Under the pieces are notes generated by a model, which was given only the letters and a program-made list of their open reading frames with translations, had not been told where the DNA came from and did not search any database. A stretch of DNA of 39,423 nt, taken from the NCBI RefSeq assembly GCF_003334255.1, contig NZ_QOWU01000054.1; one strand, given 5' to 3'. Each line of letters opens with the position of its first letter. Position 1 is the stretch's first letter. The stretch is from Escherichia coli (GTDB lineage Bacteria; Pseudomonadota; Gammaproteobacteria; Enterobacterales; Enterobacteriaceae). Below, piece after piece: positions 1,724-33,981 of the stretch. Position numbers and translations under genes: made by a program.

Positions 1724-1748
1724 AAAAAGGGCGAAATGCCCTTTTTTT
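1724..1748. terminator. Bidirectional Rho-independent terminator between convergent yifE and comM
   Basis: AAAAAGGGC-GAAAT-GCCCTTTTTTT: GC stem flanked by A-run and T-run on both sides. Confidence 0.65.
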
Positions 1749-3267
1749 ATGTCAGTAGTTTCTGCAGATGGATGAGCAAACGGTCAATCGCTCGATAGCT
1801 AACTGCCTCCTGCAAATGCTGACGTGTGATAATGTCAGACTGATCAATATCAGCAATGGTTCGTGCAACTTTCAATAACCGCTGCCAGGCACGAATCGAT
1901 AACCCCAGATGGATCAGTGTTCCTTCCAACCACATCGCATCTTCGCTCTCAAGTTTGCAGAATTGGCGTATTTCCGGACTATCCAGCCAGGCATTCAGTT
2001 TATTCTGCCGCTTAAATTGGCGCTCTCTGGCGGCCATTACGCGTTGTTTAACGGTGGCGCTGCTTTCTCCCGGCACTACCGTTTTACTCAAAATGCCGGG
2101 GGGTGGTAATGGGATCTCCAGTGAGAGATCGAAGCGGTCGAGAAAGGGCCCCGAGAGCCGGTTGAGATAACGTAATGTCTGTTCTGGCGTGCAGCGGTTA
2201 TGGTTTCCCTGATAATGTCCGGTAGGGCTGGGATTCATCGCCGCAACAAGCTGGAAACGGGCTGGATAGGTTATTTTTGCTCGTGTGCGTGAAAGATGGA
2301 TCTGCCCGGATTCAATCGGCTCTCGCAAGGCATCCAGTGTACGCCGTTCAAATTCAGGTAGCTCATCAAGAAAAAGCACGCCGTTATGCGCCAGCGAAAT
2401 TTCACCGGGCCCTGGAATTGCGCCACCGCCTACCATCGCAGTTAACGATGCACTGTGATGAGGTGAGCGGAACGGGCGCTGCCGCCATTGTTTTTGTACT
2501 GATTCAGCATTTACCAGACTTAATATCGCAGCACTCTCCAGTGCCTCTTCATTGCTTAAATCTGGCAACAGGCCATTAATACGGCTGGCGAGCATTGTTT
2601 TACCTGTTCCCGGCGGCCCAATCAGTAAAAGGTTGTGCCCGCCAGCAGCGGTAATTTCCAGTCCTCGCTTTCCTTGTTCCTGACCGATAACATCACTGAG
2701 ATCATGTTGTAGCGCCCGGGATACTGCATCAGTTGGTTTCGGGCGTTCGAGAGCGTGCTTACCTTCCAGAAACGCACAGACAGCTTGCAGATGATCGGCT
2801 ATCAGGCATCCTTCACCGTTAATTAGCCCCACTTCATCTTCGTTATCTTTCGCGACGATAATTTTTCTGCCCGACTTAATAGCTTCAGTTGCACTGGAGA
2901 TTGCGCCGGGAACGCCACGCAGAGCGCCTGTAAGCGCCAGTTCTCCGACTAATTCATATTCATCTAACTTATTGGCTGTAAGCTGTTCTGAGGCCGCCAG
3001 CAACGCAATGGCGATAGGTAAATCATATCGTCCCCCTTCTTTTGGCAGATCAGCTGGAGCCAGGTTGATGGTGATTTTTTTCGCCGGATATTCATATCCG
3101 CTATTGATAATGGCGCTGCGCACGCGATCGCGAGCTTCTTTTACCGTTGTTTCTGGTAAGCCCACCATCGTTAAGCCGGGTAGACCTTTACTGATATGTA
3201 CCTCAACAGTGATCGGGGGCGCATTTACTCCCAGGGCTGCGCGGGTATGAACAATTGACAGTGACAT
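1747..3267 (-). CDS. comM: ComM/YifB Mg-chelatase-like AAA+ ATPase (506 aa from the second in-frame ATG)
   Basis: ORF track 516 aa; Walker A GPPGTGKT present; internal ATG (MSLSIVHTRA...) preferred because GGAGGG Shine-Dalgarno lies 4 nt upstream of it; first ATG at 3297 is an alternative. Confidence 0.85.
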   Translation of the reverse strand: MSLSIVHTRAALGVNAPPITVEVHISKGLPGLTMVGLPETTVKEARDRVRSAIINSGYEYPAKKITINLAPADLPKEGGRYDLPIAIALLAASEQLTANKLDEYELVGELALTGALRGVPGAISSATEAIKSGRKIIVAKDNEDEVGLINGEGCLIADHLQAVCAFLEGKHALERPKPTDAVSRALQHDLSDVIGQEQGKRGLEITAAGGHNLLLIGPPGTGKTMLASRINGLLPDLSNEEALESAAILSLVNAESVQKQWRQRPFRSPHHSASLTAMVGGGAIPGPGEISLAHNGVLFLDELPEFERRTLDALREPIESGQIHLSRTRAKITYPARFQLVAAMNPSPTGHYQGNHNRCTPEQTLRYLNRLSGPFLDRFDLSLEIPLPPPGILSKTVVPGESSATVKQRVMAARERQFKRQNKLNAWLDSPEIRQFCKLESEDAMWLEGTLIHLGLSIRAWQRLLKVARTIADIDQSDIITRQHLQEAVSYRAIDRLLIHLQKLLT

Positions 3268-3439
3268 AAGCCCTCCTTGAGTCACCATTATGTGCATAAG
3301 ATATCGCTGCTGTAGCCCGCTAATTCGTGAATTTTAGTGGCTGATTCCTGTTTATTTGTGCAAGTGAAGTTGAGTTGTTCTGGCGGTGGAATGATGCTCG
3401 CAAAAATGCAGCGGACAAAGGATGAACTACGAGGAAGGG

Positions 3440-3789: not shown

Positions 3790-3840
3790 ATGAATAACAG
3801 CACAAAATTCTGTTTCTCAAGATTCAGGACGGGGAACTAA
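3790..3840 (+). CDS. ilvX: Small ORF, 16 aa [16 protein letters not shown], between attenuator and ilvG
   Basis: ATG preceded by GAGGAG Shine-Dalgarno; stop 2 nt before ilvG start; matches remembered ilvX small protein. Confidence 0.5.
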
Positions 3841-3842
3841 CT

Positions 3843-5489
3843 ATGAATGGCGCACAGTGGGTGGTACATGCGTTGCGGGCACAGGGTGTGAACACCGTTT
3901 TCGGTTATCCGGGTGGCGCAATTATGCCGGTTTACGATGCATTGTATGACGGCGGCGTGGAGCACTTGCTATGCCGACATGAGCAGGGTGCGGCAATGGC
4001 GGCTATCGGTTATGCTCGTGCTACCGGCAAAACTGGCGTATGTATCGCCACGTCTGGTCCGGGCGCAACCAACCTGATAACCGGGCTTGCGGACGCACTG
4101 TTAGATTCCATCCCTGTTGTTGCCATCACCGGTCAAGTGTCCGCACCGTTTATCGGCACTGACGCATTTCAGGAAGTGGATGTCCTGGGATTGTCGTTAG
4201 CCTGTACCAAGCACAGCTTTCTGGTGCAGTCGCTGGAAGAGTTGCCGCGCATCATGGCTGAAGCATTCGACGTTGCCTGCTCAGGTCGTCCTGGTCCGGT
4301 TCTGGTCGATATCCCAAAAGATATCCAGTTAGCCAGCGGTGACCTGGAACCGTGGTTCACCACCGTTGAAAACGAAGTGACTTTCCCACATGCCGAAGTT
4401 GAGCAAGCGCGCCAGATGCTGGCAAAAGCGCAAAAACCGATGCTGTACGTTGGCGGTGGCGTGGGTATGGCGCAGGCAGTTCCGGCTTTGCGTGAATTTC
4501 TCGCTGCCACAAAAATGCCTGCCACCTGTACGCTGAAAGGGCTGGGCGCAGTAGAAGCAGATTATCCGTACTATCTGGGCATGCTGGGGATGCACGGCAC
4601 CAAAGCGGCAAACTTCGCGGTGCAGGAGTGTGACCTGCTGATCGCCGTGGGCGCACGTTTTGATGACCGGGTGACCGGCAAACTGAACACCTTCGCGCCA
4701 CACGCCAGTGTTATCCATATGGATATCGACCCGGCAGAAATGAACAAGCTGCGTCAGGCACATGTGGCATTACAAGGTGATTTAAATGCTCTGTTACCAG
4801 CATTACAGCAGCCGTTAAATATCAATGACTGGCAGCAACACTGCGCGCAGCTGCGTGATGAACATTCCTGGCGTTACGACCATCCCGGTGACGCTATCTA
4901 CGCGCCGTTGTTGTTAAAACAACTGTCGGATCGTAAACCTGCGGATTGCGTCGTGACCACAGATGTGGGGCAGCACCAGATGTGGGCTGCGCAGCACATC
5001 GCCCACACTCGCCCGGAAAATTTCATCACCTCCAGCGGTTTAGGTACCATGGGTTTTGGTTTACCGGCGGCGGTTGGCGCACAAGTCGCGCGACCGAACG
5101 ATACCGTTGTCTGTATCTCCGGTGACGGCTCTTTCATGATGAATGTGCAAGAGCTGGGCACCGTAAAACGCAAGCAGTTACCGTTGAAAATCGTCTTACT
5201 CGATAACCAACGGTTAGGGATGGTTCGACAATGGCAGCAACTGTTTTTTCAGGAACGATACAGCGAAACCACCCTTACTGATAACCCCGATTTCCTCATG
5301 TTAGCCAGCGCCTTCGGCATCCATGGCCAACACATCACCCGGAAAGACCAGGTTGAAGCGGCACTCGACACCATGCTGAACAGTGATGGGCCATACCTGC
5401 TTCATGTCTCAATCGACGAACTTGAGAACGTCTGGCCGCTGGTGCCGCCTGGCGCCAGTAATTCAGAAATGTTGGAGAAATTATCATGA
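3843..5489 (+). CDS. ilvG: Acetolactate synthase II (AHAS II) large subunit, intact 548 aa
   Basis: ORF track 548 aa uninterrupted; thiamine-diphosphate enzyme motifs (e.g. [14 protein letters not shown]); first gene of the ilvGMEDA order. Confidence 0.95.
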
Positions 5490-8613: not shown

Positions 8614-8615
8614 TA

Positions 8616-13296: not shown

Positions 13297-13787
13297 TCAA
13301 TTTATGAGCGATATGGCATTGATTGACTTGATGACCGCCCTCTGTATGTCTGCAACCAACTCATGTGGCAAACATTGATTAAGATACCCTCTGTAAGTCC
13401 TTGCTCTGTTTAATCTGTTTCGACTGACTTGTTGTACCAGGTCGGCTTTGGCCCAACGAATCTGCTGATCAAAGAATTGCAGGTCATTGATAACATTACT
13501 GGCTATTTCAACATGCATTCCACGTTTTAACTTGTCTGGTCGCGAGTGGTTGATAATGGAACGACGATGCATGCGTTGCCATTAATTTTTCCGTTGAGCA
13601 CGACAACTAACCTGTTTTTTATCATTTCAGGAGGAATGCGGCCATCGTAATACGTCGTGCTGAACGGTCCATTTTGGCTAACAGGATAGTTACCAAAGTT
13701 GCATTCCAGTATTTCACCAACCTTAGGGCTGAAATTAATCGCCACGAGTAAACCTCTCCTTAGTAAACTCTGAAAAAGTAATAACAC
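13297..13787 (-). pseudogene. yifN: PemK/MazF (Kid)-family toxin-like gene split by a frameshift into two overlapping ORFs
   Basis: ORF track 13527..13787 (86 aa) and 13297..13572 (91 aa) on the same strand in different frames; N-part GEILECNFG...RLVVVLN...CIVVPLSTT and C-part GMHVEIASN...LPHELVADIQRAVIKSI resemble the two halves of Kid/MazF. Confidence 0.5.
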
Positions 13788-21200: not shown

Positions 21201-22304
21201 GTGAATTTACTGACAGTGAGTACTGATCTCATCAGTATTTTTTTATTCACGACACTGTTTCTGTTTTTTGCCCGTAAGGTGGCAAAAAAAGTCGGTTTAG
21301 TGGATAAACCAAACTTCCGCAAACGTCACCAGGGATTGATACCTCTCGTTGGGGGGATTTCGGTTTACGCAGGGATTTGCTTCACGTTCGGAATTGTCGA
21401 TTACTATATTCCGCATGCATCTCTCTATCTCGCTTGTGCCGGTGTGCTTGTTTTCATTGGCGCGCTGGATGACCGTTTTGATATCAGCGTAAAAATCCGT
21501 GCCACCATACAGGCCGCTGTTGGCATTGTTATGATGGTGTTCGGCAAGCTTTATCTCAGTAGCCTGGGTTATATCTTTGGCTCCTGGGAGATGGTGCTCG
21601 GACCGTTTGGTTACTTCCTGACGCTATTTGCCGTCTGGGCGGCCATTAATGCGTTCAACATGGTTGATGGCATTGATGGCTTGCTGGGCGGGTTGTCCTG
21701 CGTCTCGTTTGCAGCAATCGGTATGATTTTGTGGTTCGACGGGCAAACCAGCCTCGCAATCTGGTGCTTTGCGATGATCGCCGCCATCCTGCCATACATC
21801 ATGCTTAACCTTGGTATCCTGGGTCGCCGCTACAAAGTCTTTATGGGTGATGCGGGCAGTACGCTGATTGGTTTTACCGTTATCTGGATCCTGCTCGAAA
21901 CGACCCAGGGCAAAACCCATCCCATCAGCCCGGTTACCGCTTTGTGGATAATCGCCATTCCGCTAATGGATATGGTGGCGATTATGTACCGTCGCCTGCG
22001 TAAAGGCATGAGCCCATTCTCTCCTGACCGTCAGCATATTCACCATTTGATCATGCGTGCCGGGTTTACTTCCCGTCAGGCGTTTGTGCTGATTACCCTT
22101 GCCGCAGCACTGCTCGCTTCCATTGGCGTGCTGGCAGAATATTCTCATTTTGTCCCGGAGTGGGTCATGCTGGTGCTCTTTTTGCTAGCATTCTTCCTCT
22201 ATGGATATTGCATTAAGCGTGCCTGGAAAGTTGCTCGCTTTATTAAGCGCGTAAAACGCAGACTGCGTAGAAATCGTGGTGGCAGCCCCAATTTAACCAA
22301 ATAA
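21201..22304 (+). CDS. wecA: UDP-GlcNAc:undecaprenyl-phosphate GlcNAc-1-phosphate transferase, 367 aa, GTG start
   Basis: ORF track 367 aa, polytopic membrane protein MNLLTVSTDLISIFLFTTLFLFFARKV...; first gene of the ECA cluster. Confidence 0.9.
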   Translation: MNLLTVSTDLISIFLFTTLFLFFARKVAKKVGLVDKPNFRKRHQGLIPLVGGISVYAGICFTFGIVDYYIPHASLYLACAGVLVFIGALDDRFDISVKIRATIQAAVGIVMMVFGKLYLSSLGYIFGSWEMVLGPFGYFLTLFAVWAAINAFNMVDGIDGLLGGLSCVSFAAIGMILWFDGQTSLAIWCFAMIAAILPYIMLNLGILGRRYKVFMGDAGSTLIGFTVIWILLETTQGKTHPISPVTALWIIAIPLMDMVAIMYRRLRKGMSPFSPDRQHIHHLIMRAGFTSRQAFVLITLAAALLASIGVLAEYSHFVPEWVMLVLFLLAFFLYGYCIKRAWKVARFIKRVKRRLRRNRGGSPNLTK

Positions 22305-22315
22305 ATGAGGATGTG

Positions 22316-23362
22316 ATGACACAACCAATGCCTGGGAAACCGGCCGAAGACGCTGAAAATGAACTGGATATTCGTGGGTTGTTTCGTACCTTGTGGGCTG
22401 GGAAGCTATGGATTATTGGCATGGGGCTGGCGTTTGCGTTAATCGCGCTGGCGTATACGTTTTTTGCTCGTCAGGAGTGGAGCTCGACGGCGATTACCGA
22501 TCGTCCAACGGTGAATATGCTGGGGGGATATTACTCGCAGCAGCAATTTTTGCGTAACCTGGATGTCCGTTCAAACATGGCTTCTGCCGACCAACCATCG
22601 GTCATGGACGAAGCCTATAAAGAGTTTGTTATGCAACTGGCCTCGTGGGATACCCGCAGAGAGTTCTGGCTGCAAACCGACTATTACAAACAGCGGATGG
22701 TGGGCAACAGCAAAGCCGATGCGGCGTTGCTGGATGAAATGATTAACAACATCCAGTTTATCCCCGGAGACTTTACCCGCGCGGTCAATGACAGCGTGAA
22801 GCTTATTGCCGAAACCGCGCCTGACGCTAATAACCTGTTACGTCAGTATGTTGCTTTTGCCAGCCAGCGTGCAGCCAGCCATCTGAATGATGAGCTGAAA
22901 GGCGCATGGGCGGCGCGTACCATCCAGATGAAAGCTCAGGTGAAGCGTCAGGAAGAGGTGGCGAAAGCCATCTACGACCGCCGGATGAACAGCATTGAGC
23001 AGGCGCTGAAAATTGCTGAGCAGCATAATATTTCGCGCAGTGCGACAGATGTACCTGCCGAGGAATTACCTGATTCAGAAATGTTCCTGCTTGGGCGTCC
23101 AATGCTTCAGGCTCGACTGGAAAATTTACAGGCCGTCGGTCCGGCCTTTGATCTCGACTATGATCAGAATCGGGCCATGTTAAACACCCTGAATGTTGGT
23201 CCAACCCTGGATCCGCGTTTTCAGACCTATCGCTATTTGCGTACGCCGGAAGAACCGGTAAAACGCGATAGCCCACGTCGTGCCTTCCTGATGATTATGT
23301 GGGGCATTGTCGGGGGGCTGATCGGGGCTGGTGTCGCATTAACCCGCCGTTGCTCGAAATAG
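22316..23362 (+). CDS. wzzE: ECA polysaccharide chain-length modulator, 348 aa
   Basis: ORF track 349 aa MMTQPMPG...; second codon ATG chosen because GAGGA lies 5 nt upstream; Wzz-type N- and C-terminal TM segments. Confidence 0.9.
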
Positions 23363-23417
23363 CAACACTGCTGCGGTGAGCGCAAAGGCGCTCGCCGCTT
23401 ATTCGAAGAGAATCGAT

Positions 23418-24548
23418 GTGAAAGTACTGACTGTATTTGGTACGCGCCCGGAAGCCATCAAGATGGCGCCGTTGGTGCATGCGTTGGCAAAAGATCCTTT
23501 TTTTGAGGCTAAAGTTTGCGTCACTGCGCAGCATCGGGAGATGCTCGATCAGGTGCTGAAACTCTTTTCCATTGTACCTGACTACGATCTCAACATAATG
23601 CAGCCAGGACAGGGCCTGACAGAGATAACCTGTCGGATTCTGGAAGGGCTAAAACCTATTCTTGCCGAGTTCAAACCAGACGTCGTGCTGGTTCACGGCG
23701 ATACGACGACGACGCTGGCAACCAGCCTGGCGGCGTTTTATCAGCGTATTCCTGTTGGTCACGTTGAGGCTGGTCTGCGCACGGGCGATCTCTATTCGCC
23801 GTGGCCGGAAGAGGCTAACCGTACATTGACCGGGCATCTGGCGATGTATCACTTCTCTCCAACCGAAACTTCCCGGCAAAACTTGCTGCGTGAAAACGTT
23901 GCGGATAGCCGAATCTTCATTACCGGTAATACAGTCATTGATGCACTGTTATGGGTGCGTGACCAGGTGATGAGCAGCGACAAGCTGCGTTCAGAACTGG
24001 CGGCAAATTACCCGTTTATCGACCCCGATAAAAAGATGATTCTGGTGACCGGTCACAGGCGTGAGAGTTTCGGTCGTGGCTTTGAAGAAATCTGCCACGC
24101 GCTGGCAGACATCGCCACCACGCACCAGGACATCCAGATTGTCTATCCGGTGCATCTCAACCCGAACGTCAGAGAGCCGGTCAATCGCATTCTGGGGCAT
24201 GTGAAAAATGTCATTCTGATCGATCCCCAGGAGTATTTACCGTTTGTCTGGCTGATGAACCACGCCTGGCTGATTTTGACCGACTCAGGCGGCATTCAGG
24301 AAGAAGCGCCTTCGCTGGGGAAACCTGTGCTGGTGATGCGCGATACCACTGAGCGTCCGGAAGCGGTGACGGCGGGTACGGTGCGTCTGGTAGGCACGGA
24401 TAAGCAGCGAATTGTCGAGGAAGTGACGCGTCTTTTAAAAGACGAAAACGAATATCAAGCTATGAGCCGCGCCCATAACCCGTATGGTGATGGTCAGGCA
24501 TGCTCTCGCATTCTGGAAGCGTTAAAAAATAATCGGATATCACTATGA
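23418..24548 (+). CDS. wecB: UDP-N-acetylglucosamine 2-epimerase, 376 aa, GTG start
   Basis: ORF track frame 23376..24548; known N-terminus [20 protein letters not shown] begins at in-frame GTG 23418. Confidence 0.9.
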
Positions 24549-25807
24549 GTTTTGCGACCATTTCTGTTATCGGACTGGGTTATATCGGGCTGCCAACGGC
24601 AGCAGCGTTTGCCTCACGGCAAAAACAGGTAATTGGTGTCGATATCAACCAACATGCGGTTGATACCATCAATCGTGGCGAAATCCATATCGTCGAACCT
24701 GATTTGGCGAGTGTAGTAAAAACTGCCGTAGAAGGCGGTTTTTTACGAGCGAGCACGACGCCAGTTGAAGCGGATGCCTGGCTGATTGCTGTACCCACGC
24801 CGTTTAAGGGCGATCATGAGCCAGATATGACCTACGTTGAATCGGCTGCTCGCTCCATTGCGCCAGTGCTGAAAAAAGGCGCGCTGGTGATCCTTGAATC
24901 CACCTCGCCGGTGGGGTCAACCGAGAAGATGGCAGAATGGTTAGCAGAGATGCGTCCGGATCTCACTTTCCCGCAGCAGGTGGGCGAGCAGGCGGACGTC
25001 AACATTGCTTACTGCCCGGAACGCGTGTTACCAGGACAGGTAATGGTCGAGCTGATTAAAAACGATCGCGTGATTGGTGGTATGACGCCGGTTTGTTCGG
25101 CCCGCGCCAGCGAACTGTACAAAATTTTCCTCGAAGGTGAGTGTGTCGTCACTAACTCGCGGACGGCGGAAATGTGTAAGCTCACCGAAAACAGCTTCCG
25201 CGATGTGAATATCGCTTTTGCTAATGAATTGTCGCTGATTTGTGCCGATCAGGGGATTAACGTCTGGGAACTGATTCGCCTGGCGAATCGTCACCCTCGC
25301 GTTAATATTCTTCAGCCTGGCCCTGGCGTGGGCGGTCACTGCATTGCTGTTGATCCGTGGTTTATCGTGGCACAGAACCCCCAGCAGGCGCGGCTTATCC
25401 GTACCGCGCGCGAAGTGAACGATCACAAACCGTTCTGGGTTATCGATCAGGTGAAAGCGGCGGTGGCTGATTGCCTGGCGGCTACCGATAAACGCGCCAG
25501 TGAACTGAAAATCGCCTGCTTTGGTCTGGCGTTTAAACCGAATATTGATGACCTGCGCGAAAGCCCGGCGATGGAAATCGCTGAACTGATCGCCCAGTGG
25601 CATAGCGGCGAAACTCTGGTTGTTGAGCCTAACATCCACCAGTTGCCGAAAAAACTGACCGGGCTTTGTACTCTGGCGCAGCTTGACGAGGCGCTGGCAA
25701 CGGCAGACGTGCTGGTGATGCTGGTCGATCATAGTCAGTTCAAAGTTATCAATGGCGACAATGTCCATCAGCAGTATGTCGTCGATGCCAAAGGAGTCTG
25801 GCGCTGA
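24545..25807 (+). CDS. wecC: UDP-N-acetyl-D-mannosamine dehydrogenase, 420 aa
   Basis: ORF track 420 aa; N-terminal Rossmann GxGxxG ([10 protein letters not shown]); ATGA overlap with wecB. Confidence 0.95.
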
Positions 25808-26874
25808 TGAGAAAAATTCTGATAACAGGTGGTGCCGGGTTTATTGGCTCGGCGCTGGTGCGTTATATCATCAACGAAACGAGCGACGCGGTGGTAGTGG
25901 TCGATAAGCTGACCTACGCCGGAAACCTGATGTCGCTGGCACCGGTCGCGCAAAGCGAGCGCTTTGCCTTTGAGAAAGTTGATATCTGCGATCGGGCAGA
26001 ACTGGCACGCGTATTCACTGAGCATCAGCCAGACTGTGTCATGCATCTGGCAGCCGAAAGCCATGTTGACCGTTCTATTGACGGCCCGGCAGCGTTTATT
26101 GAAACCAACATTGTCGGGACTTATACATTGCTTGAAGCGGCGCGGGCTTACTGGAATGCGCTGACGGAAGATAAAAAATCAGCGTTCCGTTTTCATCATA
26201 TCTCCACTGACGAAGTATATGGTGACCTGCACTCGACGGATGATTTCTTCACCGAAACCACGCCGTATGCGCCGAGCAGCCCTTATTCCGCGTCAAAAGC
26301 CAGCAGCGACCATCTGGTGCGCGCCTGGCTGCGGACCTATGGTCTGCCGACGCTTATCACCAACTGCTCGAATAACTACGGCCCTTACCACTTTCCGGAA
26401 AAACTGATCCCGCTGATGATCCTCAACGCGCTGGCGGGTAAATCGCTGCCGGTATATGGCAACGGGCAGCAAATCCGTGACTGGCTGTATGTGGAAGATC
26501 ACGCCCGCGCGCTGTATTGCGTGGCGACCACCGGGAAAGTCGGTGAAACCTATAATATTGGTGGTCACAACGAGCGTAAGAATCTCGATGTTGTGGAAAC
26601 CATTTGCGAGCTGCTGGAAGAACTGGCTCCGAACAAGCCGCACGGCGTGGCGCACTATCGTGACCTGATCACCTTTGTCGCTGACCGTCCGGGGCATGAT
26701 CTGCGTTATGCCATTGATGCTTCGAAAATTGCCCGTGAACTTGGCTGGCTGCCGCAGGAAACCTTTGAAAGTGGAATGCGTAAAACGGTTCAGTGGTATC
26801 TGGCTAATGAAAGCTGGTGGAAGCAGGTGCAGGACGGCAGCTATCAGGGCGAGCGTTTAGGTCTGAAAGGCTAA
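25807..26874 (+). CDS. rffG: dTDP-glucose 4,6-dehydratase, 355 aa
   Basis: ORF track 355 aa; [11 protein letters not shown]-binding motif, SDR YxxxK (YSASK). Confidence 0.95.
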
Positions 26875-26892
26875 TTTTCAGCGGAGGCAAAC

Positions 26893-27774
26893 ATGAAAGG
26901 TATTATCCTGGCGGGCGGTTCCGGCACCCGATTGCATCCGATTACGCGCGGCGTATCGAAGCAACTGTTGCCGATTTACGATAAGCCAATGATTTACTAT
27001 CCGCTGTCGGTGCTGATGCTGGCCGGTATCAGCGAAATTCTCATCATCACTACGCCGGAAGATAAAGGTTATTTCCAGCGCCTGCTGGGCGATGGTAGTG
27101 AGTTCGGTATCCAGCTGGAATATGCCGAACAGCCCAGCCCGGACGGTCTGGCGCAGGCCTTTATCATCGGTGAAACCTTCCTTAATGGTGAACCTTCTTG
27201 TCTGGTGCTGGGCGATAACATCTTCTTCGGTCAGGGCTTCAGTCCGAAGCTGCGTCATGTTGCGGCGCGCACCGAAGGGGCGACGGTTTTTGGCTATCAG
27301 GTGATGGACCCGGAACGCTTTGGCGTGGTGGAGTTTGACGACAATTTCCGCGCTATCTCGCTGGAAGAAAAGCCAAAACAGCCGAAGTCAAACTGGGCGG
27401 TGACCGGGCTTTATTTCTACGACAGTAAAGTCGTGGAGTACGCAAAGCAGGTGAAGCCGTCGGAGCGTGGTGAACTGGAGATTACCTCCATCAACCAGAT
27501 GTACCTCGAGGCGGGCAACCTGACCGTTGAACTGCTCGGGCGCGGATTTGCCTGGCTGGATACCGGCACTCACGACAGCCTGATTGAAGCCAGCACCTTT
27601 GTACAGACGGTGGAAAAACGCCAGGGCTTTAAGATTGCCTGCCTGGAAGAGATTGCCTGGCGTAACGGCTGGCTCGATGACGAGGGTGTGAAGCGTGCTG
27701 CCAGTTCATTAGCGAAAACTGGCTACGGCCAATATCTGCTGGAGTTACTTCGTGCCCGTCCGCGCCAGTATTGA
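26893..27774 (+). CDS. rffH: Glucose-1-phosphate thymidylyltransferase, 293 aa
   Basis: ORF track 293 aa [18 protein letters not shown]... (nucleotidyltransferase G-rich loop). Confidence 0.95.
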
Positions 27775-28426
27775 GCCACTAACCTGGGAAAACGCCTTCT
27801 TTGGTGTTAACAGCGCCATCGTGCGCATTACGTCTGAAGCACCGCTCCTGACGCCAGACGCGTTAGCGCCGTGGTCACGGGTGCAGGCCAAAATTGCGGC
27901 ATCAAATACGGGTGAACTGGATGCCCTGCAACAGCTGGGATTCTCCCTGGTAGAAGGTGAAGTTGATTTGGCGCTACCCGTGAACAATGCCAGTGATAGC
28001 GGTGCTGTAGTGGCACAAGAGACCGATATTCCCGCATTACGTCAGTTAGCCAGCGCCGCATTTGCGCAAAGCCGTTTTCGTGCGCCGTGGTATGCGCCTG
28101 ACGCCAGCAGTCGCTTTTATGCACAGTGGATTGAAAATGCCGTGCGCGGCACCTTTGATCATCAATGTCTGATTTTACGTGCGGCGTCCGGCGATATTCG
28201 CGGCTATGTCTCTTTACGGGAACTCAATGCGACAGATGCGCGAATTGGCCTGCTGGCTGGACGCGGTGCAGGTGCTGAGCTGATGCAAACGGCGCTAAAC
28301 TGGGCGTATGCTCGCGGTAAAACAACTTTGCGGGTGGCGACCCAAATGGGCAACACCGCCGCGCTTAAACGATACATACAAAGTGGTGCGAATGTAGAAA
28401 GCACCGCGTACTGGTTATACAGGTGA
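27752..28426 (+). CDS. wecD: dTDP-fucosamine acetyltransferase (GNAT family), 224 aa as the longest ORF
   Basis: ORF track 224 aa; overlaps rffH 3' end by 23 nt, so a downstream start giving a shorter protein cannot be excluded. Confidence 0.75.
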
Positions 28427-28430
28427 TCAC

Positions 28431-29561
28431 ATGATTCCATTTAACGCACCGCCGGTGGTGGGAACCGAACTCGACTATATGCAGTCGGCAATGGGTAGCG
28501 GCAAACTGTGTGGCGATGGCGGTTTTACCCGTCGCTGCCAGCAGTGGCTGGAGCAACGTTTTGGCAGCGCCAAAGTGTTACTGACGCCGTCCTGCACCGC
28601 TTCGCTGGAGATGGCGGCGCTGCTGCTCGATATCCAGCCTGGCGATGAAGTGATCATGCCGAGCTACACCTTTGTCTCCACCGCCAATGCCTTTGTGCTG
28701 CGTGGCGCAAAAATCGTTTTTGTGGATGTTCGCCCGGACACCATGAACATCGACGAAACGCTGATTGAAGCGGCGATCACCGACAAAACGCGCGTTATCG
28801 TGCCGGTCCATTACGCGGGTGTGGCCTGCGAAATGGACACCATTATGGCGTTGGCGAAAAAGCATAATTTGTTTGTGGTAGAAGATGCCGCTCAGGGCGT
28901 GATGTCCACTTACAAAGGGCGTGCACTGGGAACCATTGGTCATATTGGCTGCTTTAGCTTCCATGAAACCAAAAACTACACGGCGGGCGGTGAAGGCGGC
29001 GCGACGCTGATTAACGATAAAGCGTTAATCGAACGAGCCGAGATCATCCGTGAAAAGGGCACTAACCGCAGCCAGTTCTTCCGTGGTCAGGTCGATAAAT
29101 ATACCTGGCGCGATATTGGCTCCAGCTATTTGATGTCCGATCTGCAAGCTGCATACCTGTGGGCGCAACTGGAAGCAGCGGATCGTATCAACCAGCAACG
29201 TCTGGCGCTGTGGCAAAACTACTACGATGCGTTAGCGCCTCTGGCGAAAGCCGGGCGTATCGAGCTGCCGTCGATTCCCGATGGCTGCGTGCAGAACGCG
29301 CATATGTTCTACATTAAACTGCGGGATATTGATGACCGGAGCGCGTTGATTAACTTTCTGAAAGAAGCGGAAATCATGGCGGTGTTTCATTACATTCCGC
29401 TGCACGGTTGCCCTGCGGGGGAACACTTTGGTGAGTTCCACGGTGAAGATCGCTACACCACCAAAGAGAGCGAGCGCCTGCTGCGCCTGCCGCTGTTCTA
29501 CAACCTGTCGCCCGTCAATCAGCGTACGGTAATTGCGACTTTGTTGAACTACTTTTCCTGA
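28431..29561 (+). CDS. wecE: dTDP-4-amino-4,6-dideoxygalactose transaminase (DegT/AHBA family, PLP-dependent), 376 aa
   Basis: ORF track 376 aa MIPFNAPPVVGTELDYMQSAMGSGKL... Confidence 0.95.
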   Translation: MIPFNAPPVVGTELDYMQSAMGSGKLCGDGGFTRRCQQWLEQRFGSAKVLLTPSCTASLEMAALLLDIQPGDEVIMPSYTFVSTANAFVLRGAKIVFVDVRPDTMNIDETLIEAAITDKTRVIVPVHYAGVACEMDTIMALAKKHNLFVVEDAAQGVMSTYKGRALGTIGHIGCFSFHETKNYTAGGEGGATLINDKALIERAEIIREKGTNRSQFFRGQVDKYTWRDIGSSYLMSDLQAAYLWAQLEAADRINQQRLALWQNYYDALAPLAKAGRIELPSIPDGCVQNAHMFYIKLRDIDDRSALINFLKEAEIMAVFHYIPLHGCPAGEHFGEFHGEDRYTTKESERLLRLPLFYNLSPVNQRTVIATLLNYFS

Positions 29562-29562
29562 T

Positions 29563-30813
29563 ATGTCGTTGGCAAAAGCGTCCTTGTGGACGGCGGCCAG
29601 TACACTGGTCAAGATTGGTGCCGGGTTACTGGTCGGTAAGTTGCTGGCGGTGTCATTTGGTCCGGCGGGGCTTGGGCTGGCGGCAAATTTCCGCCAGTTG
29701 ATTACCGTGCTCGGCGTGCTTGCCGGGGCTGGCATCTTTAACGGTGTAACCAAATACGTTGCCCAGTACCATGATAATCCGCAACAGCTGCGCCGCGTGG
29801 TCGGCACTTCATCAGCGATGGTACTTGGTTTCTCTACGCTGATGGCGCTGGTTTTTGTGCTGGCAGCTGCGCCAATCAGCCAGGGATTGTTTGGTAATAC
29901 CGACTATCAGGGGCTGGTGCGTTTAGTGGCGCTGGTGCAAATGGGGATCGCCTGGGGCAACCTGTTACTGGCGCTGATGAAAGGCTTTCGCGATGCCGCA
30001 GGTAATGCGTTATCGCTGATTGTCGGCAGCTTGATTGGCGTTCTCGCGTACTACGTCAGTTACCGTTTGGGCGGTTATGAAGGGGCGTTGCTGGGTCTGG
30101 CGCTGATTCCCGCGCTGGTGGTAATTCCTGCCGCCATCATGTTGATCAAACGTGGTGTCATCCCGTTAAGCTATCTGAAACCCAGCTGGGATAACGGTCT
30201 GGCAGGGCAGTTGAGCAAATTTACGCTCATGGCGTTGATTACGTCGGTGACCTTGCCTGTTGCTTACATCATGATGCGTAAACTGCTGGCGGCGCAGTAT
30301 AGCTGGGATGAGGTGGGGATCTGGCAAGGGGTGAGCAGTATTTCCGATGCCTACCTGCAATTTATTACGGCATCGTTCAGCGTATATTTGCTGCCCACGT
30401 TGTCGCGGCTAACGGAAAAGCGCGATATCACCCGGGAAGTGGTTAAATCGCTGAAATTCGTCTTACCGGCAGTGGCGGCGGCGAGTTTTACCGTCTGGCT
30501 GCTGCGTGATTTTGCTATCTGGCTGCTGTTGTCGAATAAATTTACCGCTATGCGCGATCTCTTTGCCTGGCAGTTAGTGGGTGATGTGTTAAAAGTGGGC
30601 GCTTATGTCTTTGGTTATCTGGTGATCGCCAAAGCGTCACTGCGGTTTTATATTCTGGCGGAAGTCAGCCAGTTCACTTTATTGATGGTATTTGCCCACT
30701 GGCTAATCCCTGCGCATGGTGCACTGGGCGCGGCGCAGGCATATATGGCAACTTATATCGTCTATTTTTCTCTTTGTTGTGGCGTGTTTTTACTCTGGCG
30801 TAGGCGGGCATGA
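29563..30813 (+). CDS. wzxE: ECA lipid III flippase (polytopic membrane protein), 416 aa
   Basis: ORF track 416 aa, highly hydrophobic; position in cluster. Confidence 0.9.
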
Positions 30814-31889
30814 CTGTACTGATTCACGTACTGGGATCGGATATCCCTCACCATAACCGAACCGTTTTGCGGTTTTTCAATGACGCGCTGGCCGCGACGA
30901 GCGAGCACGCGCGCGAGTTTATGGTTGTTGGCAAGGACGACGGCTTAAGTGATAGCTGTCCGGCGCTTTCTGTGCAATTTTTCCCTGGGAAAAAATCGCT
31001 GGCGGAAGCGGTCATCGCGAAAGCAAAAGCTAACCGTCAGCAGCGTTTTTTCTTCCACGGTCAGTTCAATCCCACACTGTGGCTGGCTCTGCTGAGTGGT
31101 GGCATTAAGCCCAGCCAGTTTTTCTGGCATATCTGGGGGGCAGACCTGTATGAGCTTTCCAGTGGCTTGAGATATAAGCTTTTTTACCCACTACGTCGCC
31201 TGGCGCAAAAGCGAGTCGGCTGTGTATTTGCCACCCGCGGCGATTTGAGCTTTTTTGCCAAAACGCACCCAAAGGTGCGGGGCGAACTGCTGTTCTTCCC
31301 GACGCGGATGGACCCTTCGCTCAATACGATGGCGAACGATCGGCAACGTGAAGGGAAAATGACCATTCTGGTGGGGAACTCCGGCGACCGCAGCAATGAG
31401 CATATTGCTGCCTTGCGCGCCGTTCATCAGCAATTTGGCGATACGGTAAAAGTGGTGGTGCCGATGGGATATCCGCCTAATAACGAAGCGTACATTGAGG
31501 AAGTTCGTCAGGCGGGGCTGGAGTTATTCAGCGAAGAAAATCTACAAATTCTGAGCGAAAAACTGGAATTTGACGCCTATCTGGCGCTACTTCGTCAGTG
31601 CGATCTTGGTTACTTTATTTTTGCCCGCCAGCAGGGCATTGGTACGCTGTGCTTACTGATTCAGGCGGGCATTCCTTGTGTGCTTAACCGGGAAAATCCG
31701 TTCTGGCAGGATATGACGGAACAACATTTGCCGGTGCTGTTTACTACCGACGATCTCAACGAGGATATTGTGCGTGAAGCGCAGCGCCAGTTGGCGTCGG
31801 TGGATAAAAACACCATTGCCTTCTTTAGCCCTAACTATCTACAAGGCTGGCAGCGGGCGTTGGCGATTGCCGCCGGGGAGGTCGCATGA
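30810..31889 (+). CDS. wecF: TDP-N-acetylfucosamine:lipid II N-acetylfucosaminyltransferase, 359 aa
   Basis: ORF track 359 aa; ATGA overlaps on both sides (wzxE and wzyE). Confidence 0.9.
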
Positions 31890-33238
31890 GTCTGCTGCAA
31901 TTCAGTGGCCTGTTTATTGTCTGGCTGCTCTGCACGCTGTTTATTGCCACGCTGACCTGGTTTGAGTTTCGCCGTGTGCGCTTTAACTTCAATGTCTTCT
32001 TTTCATTGCTGTTTTTGCTCACCTTTTTCTTCGGCTTCCCGCTGACCAGCGTGCTGGTATTTCGCTTTGATGTTGGTGTCGCGCCGCCAGAAATCTTGTT
32101 GCAGGCGTTGCTTTCTGCGGGCTGCTTCTACGCGGTTTACTATGTCACCTACAAAACCCGCCTACGCAAACGCGTTGCTGATGTACCGCGCCGTCCGCTG
32201 TTTACCATGAACCGCGTGGAGACCAATCTTACGTGGGTGATCCTGATGGGTATCGCGCTGGTAAGCGTCGGCATCTTCTTCATGCACAACGGCTTTTTGC
32301 TGTTCCGGCTTAACTCCTACAGTCAGATCTTTTCCAGTGAAGTCTCCGGCGTGGCGTTAAAACGCTTCTTTTACTTTTTCATCCCGGCGATGCTGGTGGT
32401 CTACTTTCTGCGCCAGGACAGCAAAGCGTGGCTGTTTTTCCTCGTCAGCACGGTCGCCTTTGGCTTGCTGACTTATATGATTGTCGGCGGCACTCGCGCC
32501 AATATCATCATCGCATTCGCTATCTTCCTGTTTATTGGCATTATTCGCGGCTGGATTTCGTTGTGGATGCTGGCGGCGGCGGGCGTGCTGGGGATTGTTG
32601 GCATGTTCTGGCTGGCACTAAAACGCTATGGAATGAATGTGAGCGGCGATGAAGCGTTCTATACGTTTCTCTATCTCACTCGCGACACCTTCTCGCCGTG
32701 GGAGAATCTGGCGTTGCTGTTGCAGAACTACGACAACATCGACTTCCAGGGCCTGGCTCCAATTGTCCGCGATTTCTATGTCTTTATCCCTTCCTGGCTG
32801 TGGCCGGGTCGCCCGAGTATGGTGCTGAACTCAGCCAACTACTTTACCTGGGAAGTGCTGAATAACCACTCCGGACTGGCGATCTCGCCTACGCTTATAG
32901 GCTCACTGGTGGTGATGGGCGGCGCGTTGTTCATCCCGCTCGGGGCGATCGTGGTTGGTCTGATCATCAAATGGTTCGACTGGCTGTATGAGCTGGGCAA
33001 CCGCGAGCCTAATCGCTATAAAGCTGCGATATTGCACAGTTTCTGCTTTGGGGCGATCTTCAATATGATCGTGCTGGCGCGTGAAGGGCTGGATTCGTTT
33101 GTCTCACGCGTGGTCTTTTTTATCGTGGTCTTCGGCGCATGTCTGATGATCGCAAAACTGTTGTACTGGCTTTTTGAAAGCGCCGGACTCATTCATAAAC
33201 GTACAAAATCATCGCTCCGGACGCAGGTTGAAGGATAA
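31886..33238 (+). CDS. wzyE: ECA polymerase (polytopic membrane protein), 450 aa
   Basis: ORF track 450 aa, multiple TM segments. Confidence 0.9.
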
Positions 33239-33240
33239 CA

Positions 33241-33981
33241 ATGAATAACAACACCACGGCACCAACCTATACGCTGCGTGGCTTACAGTTGATTGGTTGG
33301 CGTGATATGCAGCACGCCCTCGATTATCTGTTTGCTGACGGGCAGCTTAAGCAGGGAACGCTGGTTGCCATTAATGCTGAAAAAATGCTGACTATTGAAG
33401 ATAACGCCGAGGTCAGGGAGTTAATTAACGCTGCCGAATTTAAATATGCGGATGGCATCAGCGTTGTACGTTCAGTACGTAAAAAGTACCCGCAGGCGCA
33501 GGTTTCCCGCGTTGCCGGTGCCGATCTCTGGGAAGAGCTGATGGCGCGCGCAGGCAAAGAAGGGACGCCGGTATTTCTTGTGGGCGGTAAACCTGAAGTG
33601 CTGGCGCAAACTGAAGCTAAACTGCGCAACCAGTGGAATGTGAATATCGTTGGCAGTCAGGATGGTTATTTTAAACCCGAGCAGCGTCAGGCGCTGTTTG
33701 AACGCATTCATGCCAGCGGTGCGCAAATCGTCACCGTTGCGATGGGATCGCCAAAGCAGGAGATCATCATGCGCGACTGCCGTCTGGTACATCCAGATGC
33801 GCTGTATATGGGCGTTGGCGGGACTTACGATGTTTTCACCGGTCACGTAAAACGCGCACCGAAAATCTGGCAAACGCTGGGGCTGGAGTGGCTCTACCGC
33901 CTGCTTTCGCAGCCGAGCCGCATTAAGCGTCAGCTTCGTTTGCTGCGTTATTTACGCTGGCACTACACCGGCAACCTATGA
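33241..33981 (+). CDS. wecG: UDP-N-acetyl-D-mannosaminuronic acid transferase (WecG/TagA family), 246 aa
   Basis: ORF track 246 aa [31 protein letters not shown]... Confidence 0.9.

Follow-up and report, generated by a model that had tools for sequence, protein, structure and literature searches.

The founding cases of translational coupling, trpB-trpA, trpE-trpD and galT-galK (as listed by Burkhardt 2017), are pairs whose stop and start codons overlap or lie a few nucleotides apart within one operon. The same geometry is found in the wec (enterobacterial common antigen, ECA) operon of Escherichia coli, which is analysed here, together with the ilv genes that accompany it, in a 39,423-nt stretch of contig NZ_QOWU01000054.1 (assembly GCF_003334255.1), hereafter the window. 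The trp and gal pairs were shown genetically, whereas the wec junctions are known from comparative and ribosome-profiling evidence alone. Published ATGA and TGATG pairs (2019, PMC6728339; 2023, PMC10666635) have the same motifs, co-directional operon context and distance classes as wec. In published reporter tests, native E. coli pairs at a distance of -4 were coupled in four of five cases, usually with the aid of a Shine-Dalgarno (SD) sequence, and coupling efficiency collapses at a spacing of about 20 nt.

Among unidirectional neighbours in E. coli the modal distance is -4, followed by -1, and 707 of 2,987 pairs (24%) lie within -8 to +6; about 15% of open reading frame (ORF) pairs overlap (Burkhardt 2017). 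The K-12 counterparts of the junctions studied here are listed in Table S2 of Huber 2023 (PMC10666635), at -4 for wecB/wecC, -1 for wecC/rffG, -23 for rffH/rffC and -4 for both wzxE/wecF and wecF/wzyE. Every wec pair in that table is flagged 'CMPLX not', and in the multi-genome table of the same paper the WecB-WecC COG pair typically lies at about -3 to -4. The overlaps are real and conserved, but they belong to the commonest type of gene junction in bacterial operons and, being already catalogued, are known. Our analysis leads us to conclude, with high confidence, that they are ordinary intra-operon junctions of wec (ECA) and ilvGMEDA, at which a termination-reinitiation relay would yield unequal output modulated by SD strength, with wecD translated from GTG 27752.

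Results

The wec operon spans 21201-33981 on the plus strand in the order wecA-wzzE-wecB-wecC-rffG-rffH-wecD(rffC)-wecE(rffA)-wzxE-wecF(rffT)-wzyE-wecG, as delimited by the RefSeq annotation of an identical chromosome, the ORF list, the junction table and NCBIfam equivalogs. Its junction distances are, in order, +11, +55, -4, -1, +18, -23, +4, +1, -4, -4 and +2 nt, negative values denoting overlap. A sequence-only reading of the window had placed start-stop overlaps at four wec junctions and at ilvG/ilvM, and the bases, read directly, bear out all five, each on the plus strand. The wecC start overlies the wecB stop TGA in ATGA at 24545-24548 (-4; sequence and annotation), where wecC has a weak SD (-3.3 kcal/mol). 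The wecC stop TGA and the rffG start ATG share one base in TGATG at 25805-25809 (-1), with a strong SD, AAGGAG, 10 nt upstream. ATGA recurs at 30810-30813, where the wecF start overlies the wzxE stop (-4) and wecF has at most a weak SD in the species compared, and at 31886-31889, where the wzyE start overlies the wecF stop (-4) and the SD is very strong (GGGGAGGT). In the acetolactate synthase II subunit genes, the ilvM start overlies the stop of an intact ilvG in ATGA, followed by TG, at 5486-5489 (-4). The 23-nt overlap between rffH and wecD, reported for the longest ORF, also stands (GTG 27752 to the rffH end at 27774). These coordinates are not mis-called, as the PGAP annotation of a 100%-identical chromosome has exactly the same starts and stops.

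Several equally tight junctions without overlap had gone unmentioned. In wec they are wecD/wecE (+4; 28426-28431, spacer at 28427-28430, plus strand), where the SD of wecE is extended and strong (AGGTGATC), wecE/wzxE (+1; 29561-29563, spacer at 29562, plus strand), where wzxE has no SD, and wzyE/wecG (+2; 33238-33241). In ilv they are ilvX/ilvG (+2; within 3790-3843) and, from the annotation, ilvD/ilvA (+2; 8613/8616, spacer at 8614-8615, plus strand; SD energy -8.4). Coupled pairs typically overlap by 4 or 1 nt or lie at about -8 to +10, and such spacing is present in the wec pairs at -4 (three junctions), -1, +1, +2 and +4 and in ilvG/ilvM at -4. In an NCBIfam scan of nine ECA proteins and IlvM, equivalog matches above the curated cut-off, with coverage from residue 1, were obtained for wecB, wecC, rffG, rffH, wecD, wecE, wzxE, wecF, wzyE and IlvM. 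The ORFs are therefore real genes, and only the unusualness of their spacing is at issue.

The observation of the sequence-only reading is confirmed, and its interpretation is supported in part. Of the 11 distances in wec, seven fall within -8 to +6 (binomial P = 0.0055 against all E. coli unidirectional pairs) and five are overlaps (P = 0.016 against 15% of ORF pairs, and P = 0.077 against the 73/326 operon pairs of Burkhardt 2017). Junction density in wec is a little above average, yet the cluster is no outlier for a long operon.

SD sequences were scored as duplex energies with the 3' tail of 16S rRNA, the in-gene background having a median of -3.8. Across species, median energies are at or weaker than background for wecC (-3.9), wzxE (-1.9) and wecF (-1.8), and neither the window nor 77-79 other species have an SD at these three genes. 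Strong SDs are kept across species at rffG (median -8.2), rffH (-10.3), wecE (-8.2) and wzyE (-7.4); the extended wecE SD scores -11.6 with a 13-nt 16S tail and is under-scored (-3.8) with a 9-nt anti-SD. Both wecA (21201) and wecB (23418) start at GTG behind a weak SD, with energies of about -2.7 kcal/mol for wecA and -2.9 to -3.6 kcal/mol for wecB, and all 78 of the 78 sequences compared have GTG at wecB.

The junctions were compared across 80 ECA loci, one per species, all from Enterobacteriaceae and with WecD identities of 64-94%. Loci were fetched by WecD alignment, the 12 E. coli proteins were placed on them by tblastn and each junction was measured. The -4 distance was found at wecB/wecC in 80 of 81 sequences (the 80 species plus the window), at wzxE/wecF in 77/79 and at wecF/wzyE in 78/79. 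The short spacers are kept to a similar degree, with +4 at wecD/wecE and +1 at wecE/wzxE each in 76 of 80 loci, and rffH/wecD lies at -23 in 46/48, with a GTG start in 47/48. The wzyE/wecG distance is variable, from -8 to +14. At wecC/rffG the junction itself has been remodelled: in Escherichia, Citrobacter and Salmonella it reads TGATG or TAATG (-1), and in other genera TTGA or GTGA (-4), with rffG starting at TTG (19 species) or GTG (nine species). Despite this switch the two genes stay overlapped in 48 of 49 sequences.

A second remodelling concerns the 32 of 80 species in which rffG and rffH (the equivalent of 25807-27774 in the window) are missing from the ECA cluster and wecD directly follows wecC. 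As judged from the aligned loci, this loss appears to be recurrent. In 13 of these species wecC and wecD now overlap by 4 nt, and in others a short spacer with a good SD separates them; overlaps of 4 or 1 nt together account for 16 of the 32. WecD keeps the same conserved N-terminus in all of them, with ATG, GTG or TTG at the aligned start in 22 and within three codons of it in the rest. Several Raoultella/Klebsiella/Enterobacter-type loci carry a 78-nt scar in which the 5' end of rffG is fused to the 3' end of rffH, and one locus (L016) lacks rffH only.

The overlap of rffH with wecD had been taken to leave the wecD start ambiguous. This ambiguity can be set aside, as six independent lines of comparative and structural evidence settle the start at GTG 27752. 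The wecD ORF has its first start codon here, within the last seven codons (RARPRQY) plus stop of rffH, and the two genes share 23 nt of dual-coding sequence (27752-27774, plus strand). A GGAG SD (27741-27744, plus strand; -5.9 kcal/mol) stands 7 nt before it in rffH Leu-Glu codons. Of 46 sequences, 40 have GAG as the Glu codon that supplies this SD and six have GAT; GAA never occurs, although neighbouring wobble sites vary freely. Where the genes overlap, wobble positions of rffH coincide with second positions of wecD, and their mean entropy is 0.47 versus 0.97 upstream (Mann-Whitney P = 0.012); wobble positions of wecD do not vary there at all (0.00 versus 1.35, P = 6e-5).

Near the 5' end of wecD the sole in-frame alternative is GTG 27821 (codon 24), use of which would mean that rffH and wecD do not overlap. 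It could draw support from TIGR02382 (wecD_rffC), an older model of 191 positions that covers only WecD residues 44-224. However, GTG 27821 has no SD (-2.8 kcal/mol, at background), and it would remove residues 2-23, which are conserved, with A5, L10, W12, E13, F16, F17 and S21 invariant among 14 genera-level sequences. Crystallised WecD (PDB 2fs5/2ft0) aligns to residues 2-224, residues 3-69 being an ordered N-terminal domain in the structure, and NF008212 aligns to residues 1-224; the structure, this model and the conserved N-terminus all point to the full-length 224-aa form. The same N-terminus directly after wecC in the species without rffG and rffH, and the constraint on rffH wobble sites, argue likewise. 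The TetRP start-site supplement has no rffC/wecD entry. The short coverage of TIGR02382 may reflect an older, shorter gene model, which nothing now supports. Initiation at GTG 27821 was rejected on SD, N-terminal conservation, structure and the loci without rffGH, and we consider it extremely improbable.

The origin of the overlap can also be addressed. The RmlA profile TIGR01207 ends at RffH residue 286 of 293, and the tail beyond it, RARPRQY (27751-27771), coincides exactly with the part overlapped by wecD, a pattern consistent with an overlap that arose when the stop codon of rffH was displaced. Because the overlap is fixed in at least 46 species and both frames are constrained, it is old and maintained and not a recent accident.

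The sequence-only reading took the overlaps to imply tight stoichiometric co-translation, and for wec this part does not hold. Ribosome density (RD) and translation efficiency (TE) in K-12, from Supplementary File 1 of Burkhardt 2017, are 95.6 and 0.39 for rfe/wecA, 80.6 and 0.31 for wzzE, 138.3 and 0.59 for rffE/wecB, 166.9 and 0.77 for rffD/wecC, 110.8 and 0.55 for rffG, 62.8 and 0.35 for rffH, 24.5 and 0.21 for rffC/wecD, and 130.0 and 1.10 for rffA/wecE. Densities thus span a 6.8-fold range over these eight genes, with wecD the lowest. From wecB to wecC the ratio is 1.21 and from wecC to rffG 0.66 (within 1.2-1.5-fold); it is 0.39 across the -23 overlap (rffH to wecD) and 5.3 across the +4 junction (wecD to wecE). 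The ratios at the two short overlaps are compatible with coupling, but they are no tighter than that at the +11 junction (0.84). Synthesis at about 1:1, as expected of coupled partners, is not seen in the wec pairs with data. Nor are wec pairs known to encode partners in a heteromeric complex, an enriched though non-obligatory feature, all of them carrying the 'CMPLX not' flag; the wec enzymes are sequential pathway enzymes, not complex subunits. The claim of stoichiometry fails for wec because the densities are unequal, overlapping pairs genome-wide are about as variable as non-overlapping ones and no wec pair is a known heteromeric complex.

The claim remains reasonable for ilvG/ilvM, whose annotated products are the catalytic subunit and the small subunit of acetolactate synthase 2 and which are, as far as is known, the only pair here that encodes two subunits of one enzyme. 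In the window ilvG is intact (548 aa, 3843-5489); in K-12 laboratory strains it is frameshifted, so the window comes from an E. coli other than K-12. A search of the available literature for ilvG/ilvM coupling found nothing.

The wec genes share one transcript according to the literature on the operon, and K-12 mRNA levels are similar from wecA to rffH. They then step down from about 180 (rffH) to 118 (rffC, rffA), coinciding with the poorly translated wecD (26893-28426 in the window for rffH and wecD); partial termination or faster decay may be involved.

Several complete E. coli chromosomes match the 10 kb around these junctions at 100% identity, and the wec region was found in 5,425 of 5,426 complete E. 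coli genomes. According to the RefSeq annotation of an identical chromosome, the window contains ilvLXGMEDA-ilvY-ilvC-ppiC-rep-gppA-rhlB-trxA-rhoL-rho, the 12 ECA genes in canonical order downstream of rho, thrP, four tRNAs and aslBA. Between ppiC and rep lies a frameshifted pseudogene of a PemK/MazF-family toxin (13297-13787, minus strand; ORFs 13297-13572 and 13527-13787). A yifB-family gene is present as one uninterrupted 516-codon ORF (1747-3297, minus strand); in strain 300709, the annotation reference, it is split by an ISEc20 (IS110-like) insertion.

Discussion

Our results suggest that termination-reinitiation coupling is likely at several wec junctions. At distances of -4, -1 and +1 to +4, a terminating ribosome would sit on or beside the next start codon and could reinitiate there. 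The absence of an SD at wecC, wzxE and wecF, taken with the published coupling assays, leads us to infer that ribosomes that have just terminated on the upstream gene are probably the main route of initiation at these three genes. At rffG, wecE and wzyE, de novo initiation at strong SDs may add to such a relay or dominate it, and wecD initiates at GTG 27752, within the seven-codon rffH tail, by means of its conserved GGAG. With a relay and SDs of differing strength, output differs between genes and is not 1:1. That ribosomes do reinitiate at these junctions is plausible.

Several observations weigh against this interpretation. The reporter tests include one E. coli pair among five, bioBF, that is uncoupled. 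Genome-wide, the relative translation of overlapping pairs is about as variable as that of non-overlapping pairs (p = 0.06; Burkhardt 2017), and the density data cover eight wec genes, wecA to wecE. A literature search found no experiment on coupling at wec junctions; the phrase 'translational coupling' occurred in a single paper on ECA, where it means a reporter method. Local RNA folds in eight 111-nt junction windows have minimum free energies no more stable than those of dinucleotide shuffles (z from -1.55 to +1.59). As the junction folds equal their shuffled controls, a structure-gated model gets no support, and gating of the junctions by RNA structure was rejected on these values. Finally, conservation of ATGA is partly trivial and would be expected anyway, because each base serves a needed start or stop codon. 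Overlap that is kept through junction remodelling carries more weight.

Some of these points favour the alternative that the overlaps are neutral by-products of start and stop codon turnover, with ATGA and TGATG as the simplest contacts between neighbouring frames, downstream genes initiating independently and the overlaps having no role in coupling. The similar spread of TE ratios in overlapping and non-overlapping operon pairs and the behaviour of bioBF are what it would predict, rffG and wzyE each come with a strong SD, and the rffH tail in the -23 overlap extends beyond the RmlA profile, as expected from a simple downstream shift of the stop. However, in 77-79 species no SD rises above background at wecC, wzxE or wecF, and wecC nevertheless has 1.2 times the translation of wecB. 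Moreover, remodelling of both junctions (wecC/rffG on going from -1 to -4, and wecC/wecD on deletion of rffGH) has usually re-created either overlapping genes or a spacer that is very short. We therefore regard neutrality as unlikely. A somewhat better, though still doubtful, case can be made that compact junctions mainly serve transcription and mRNA integrity. Continuous ribosome cover would then block Rho loading and nuclease entry along a transcript of 12 genes and ~12.8 kb, and this cover, not protein ratios, would be the selected property. Rho needs a stretch of naked RNA. No wec junction exceeds 55 nt, and nine of the 11 measure at most +18 nt; mRNA falls just ~2-fold from wecA to wecE, and its one step, from 180 to 118, lies at wecD (TE 0.21). 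This explanation is compatible with termination-reinitiation and does not exclude it.

It is also conceivable, but we think distinctly improbable, that the fixed -23 overlap, with its GTG start, its SD buried in rffH and the least accessible start region, acts as a conserved translational throttle that keeps WecD the lowest of the wec enzymes measured, and that the repeated excision of rffGH, which left 4-nt or 1-nt wecC/wecD overlaps in 16 of 32 species, reflects selection for an unbroken ribosome relay along the wec mRNA. The reading that we favour, ordinary intra-operon junctions with a relay modulated by SDs, has practical consequences. Overlap should not be taken to mean equal protein output, as translation within wec differs up to about 7-fold, and the wecD start at GTG 27752 can be used with confidence in annotation. 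When wec genes are deleted or interrupted in frame, the final ~25 nt of every upstream gene should be left in place, because the ribosome-binding site and start of the next gene lie there and because wecC, wzxE and wecF probably need upstream translation. Beyond annotation practice the significance is small, as this is textbook operon architecture that already appears in a published genome-wide table.

Coupling of ilvD and ilvA, in the ilv operon, was reportedly described by Harms et al. in 1988, and the +2 junction of that pair (8613/8616) lies in this window. In PMC10666635 the wec junctions are counted only and flagged as non-complex, and the published rationale of heteromer stoichiometry fits just ilvG/ilvM among the pairs studied here. 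The rffH/wecD overlap finds its closest likeness in the stop-displacement overlaps of PMC3887535: here too a tail, of seven residues in RffH, runs past the protein core (RmlA) to the next stop, inside wecD. It differs from those overlaps in being fixed across at least 46 species, with constraint in both frames.

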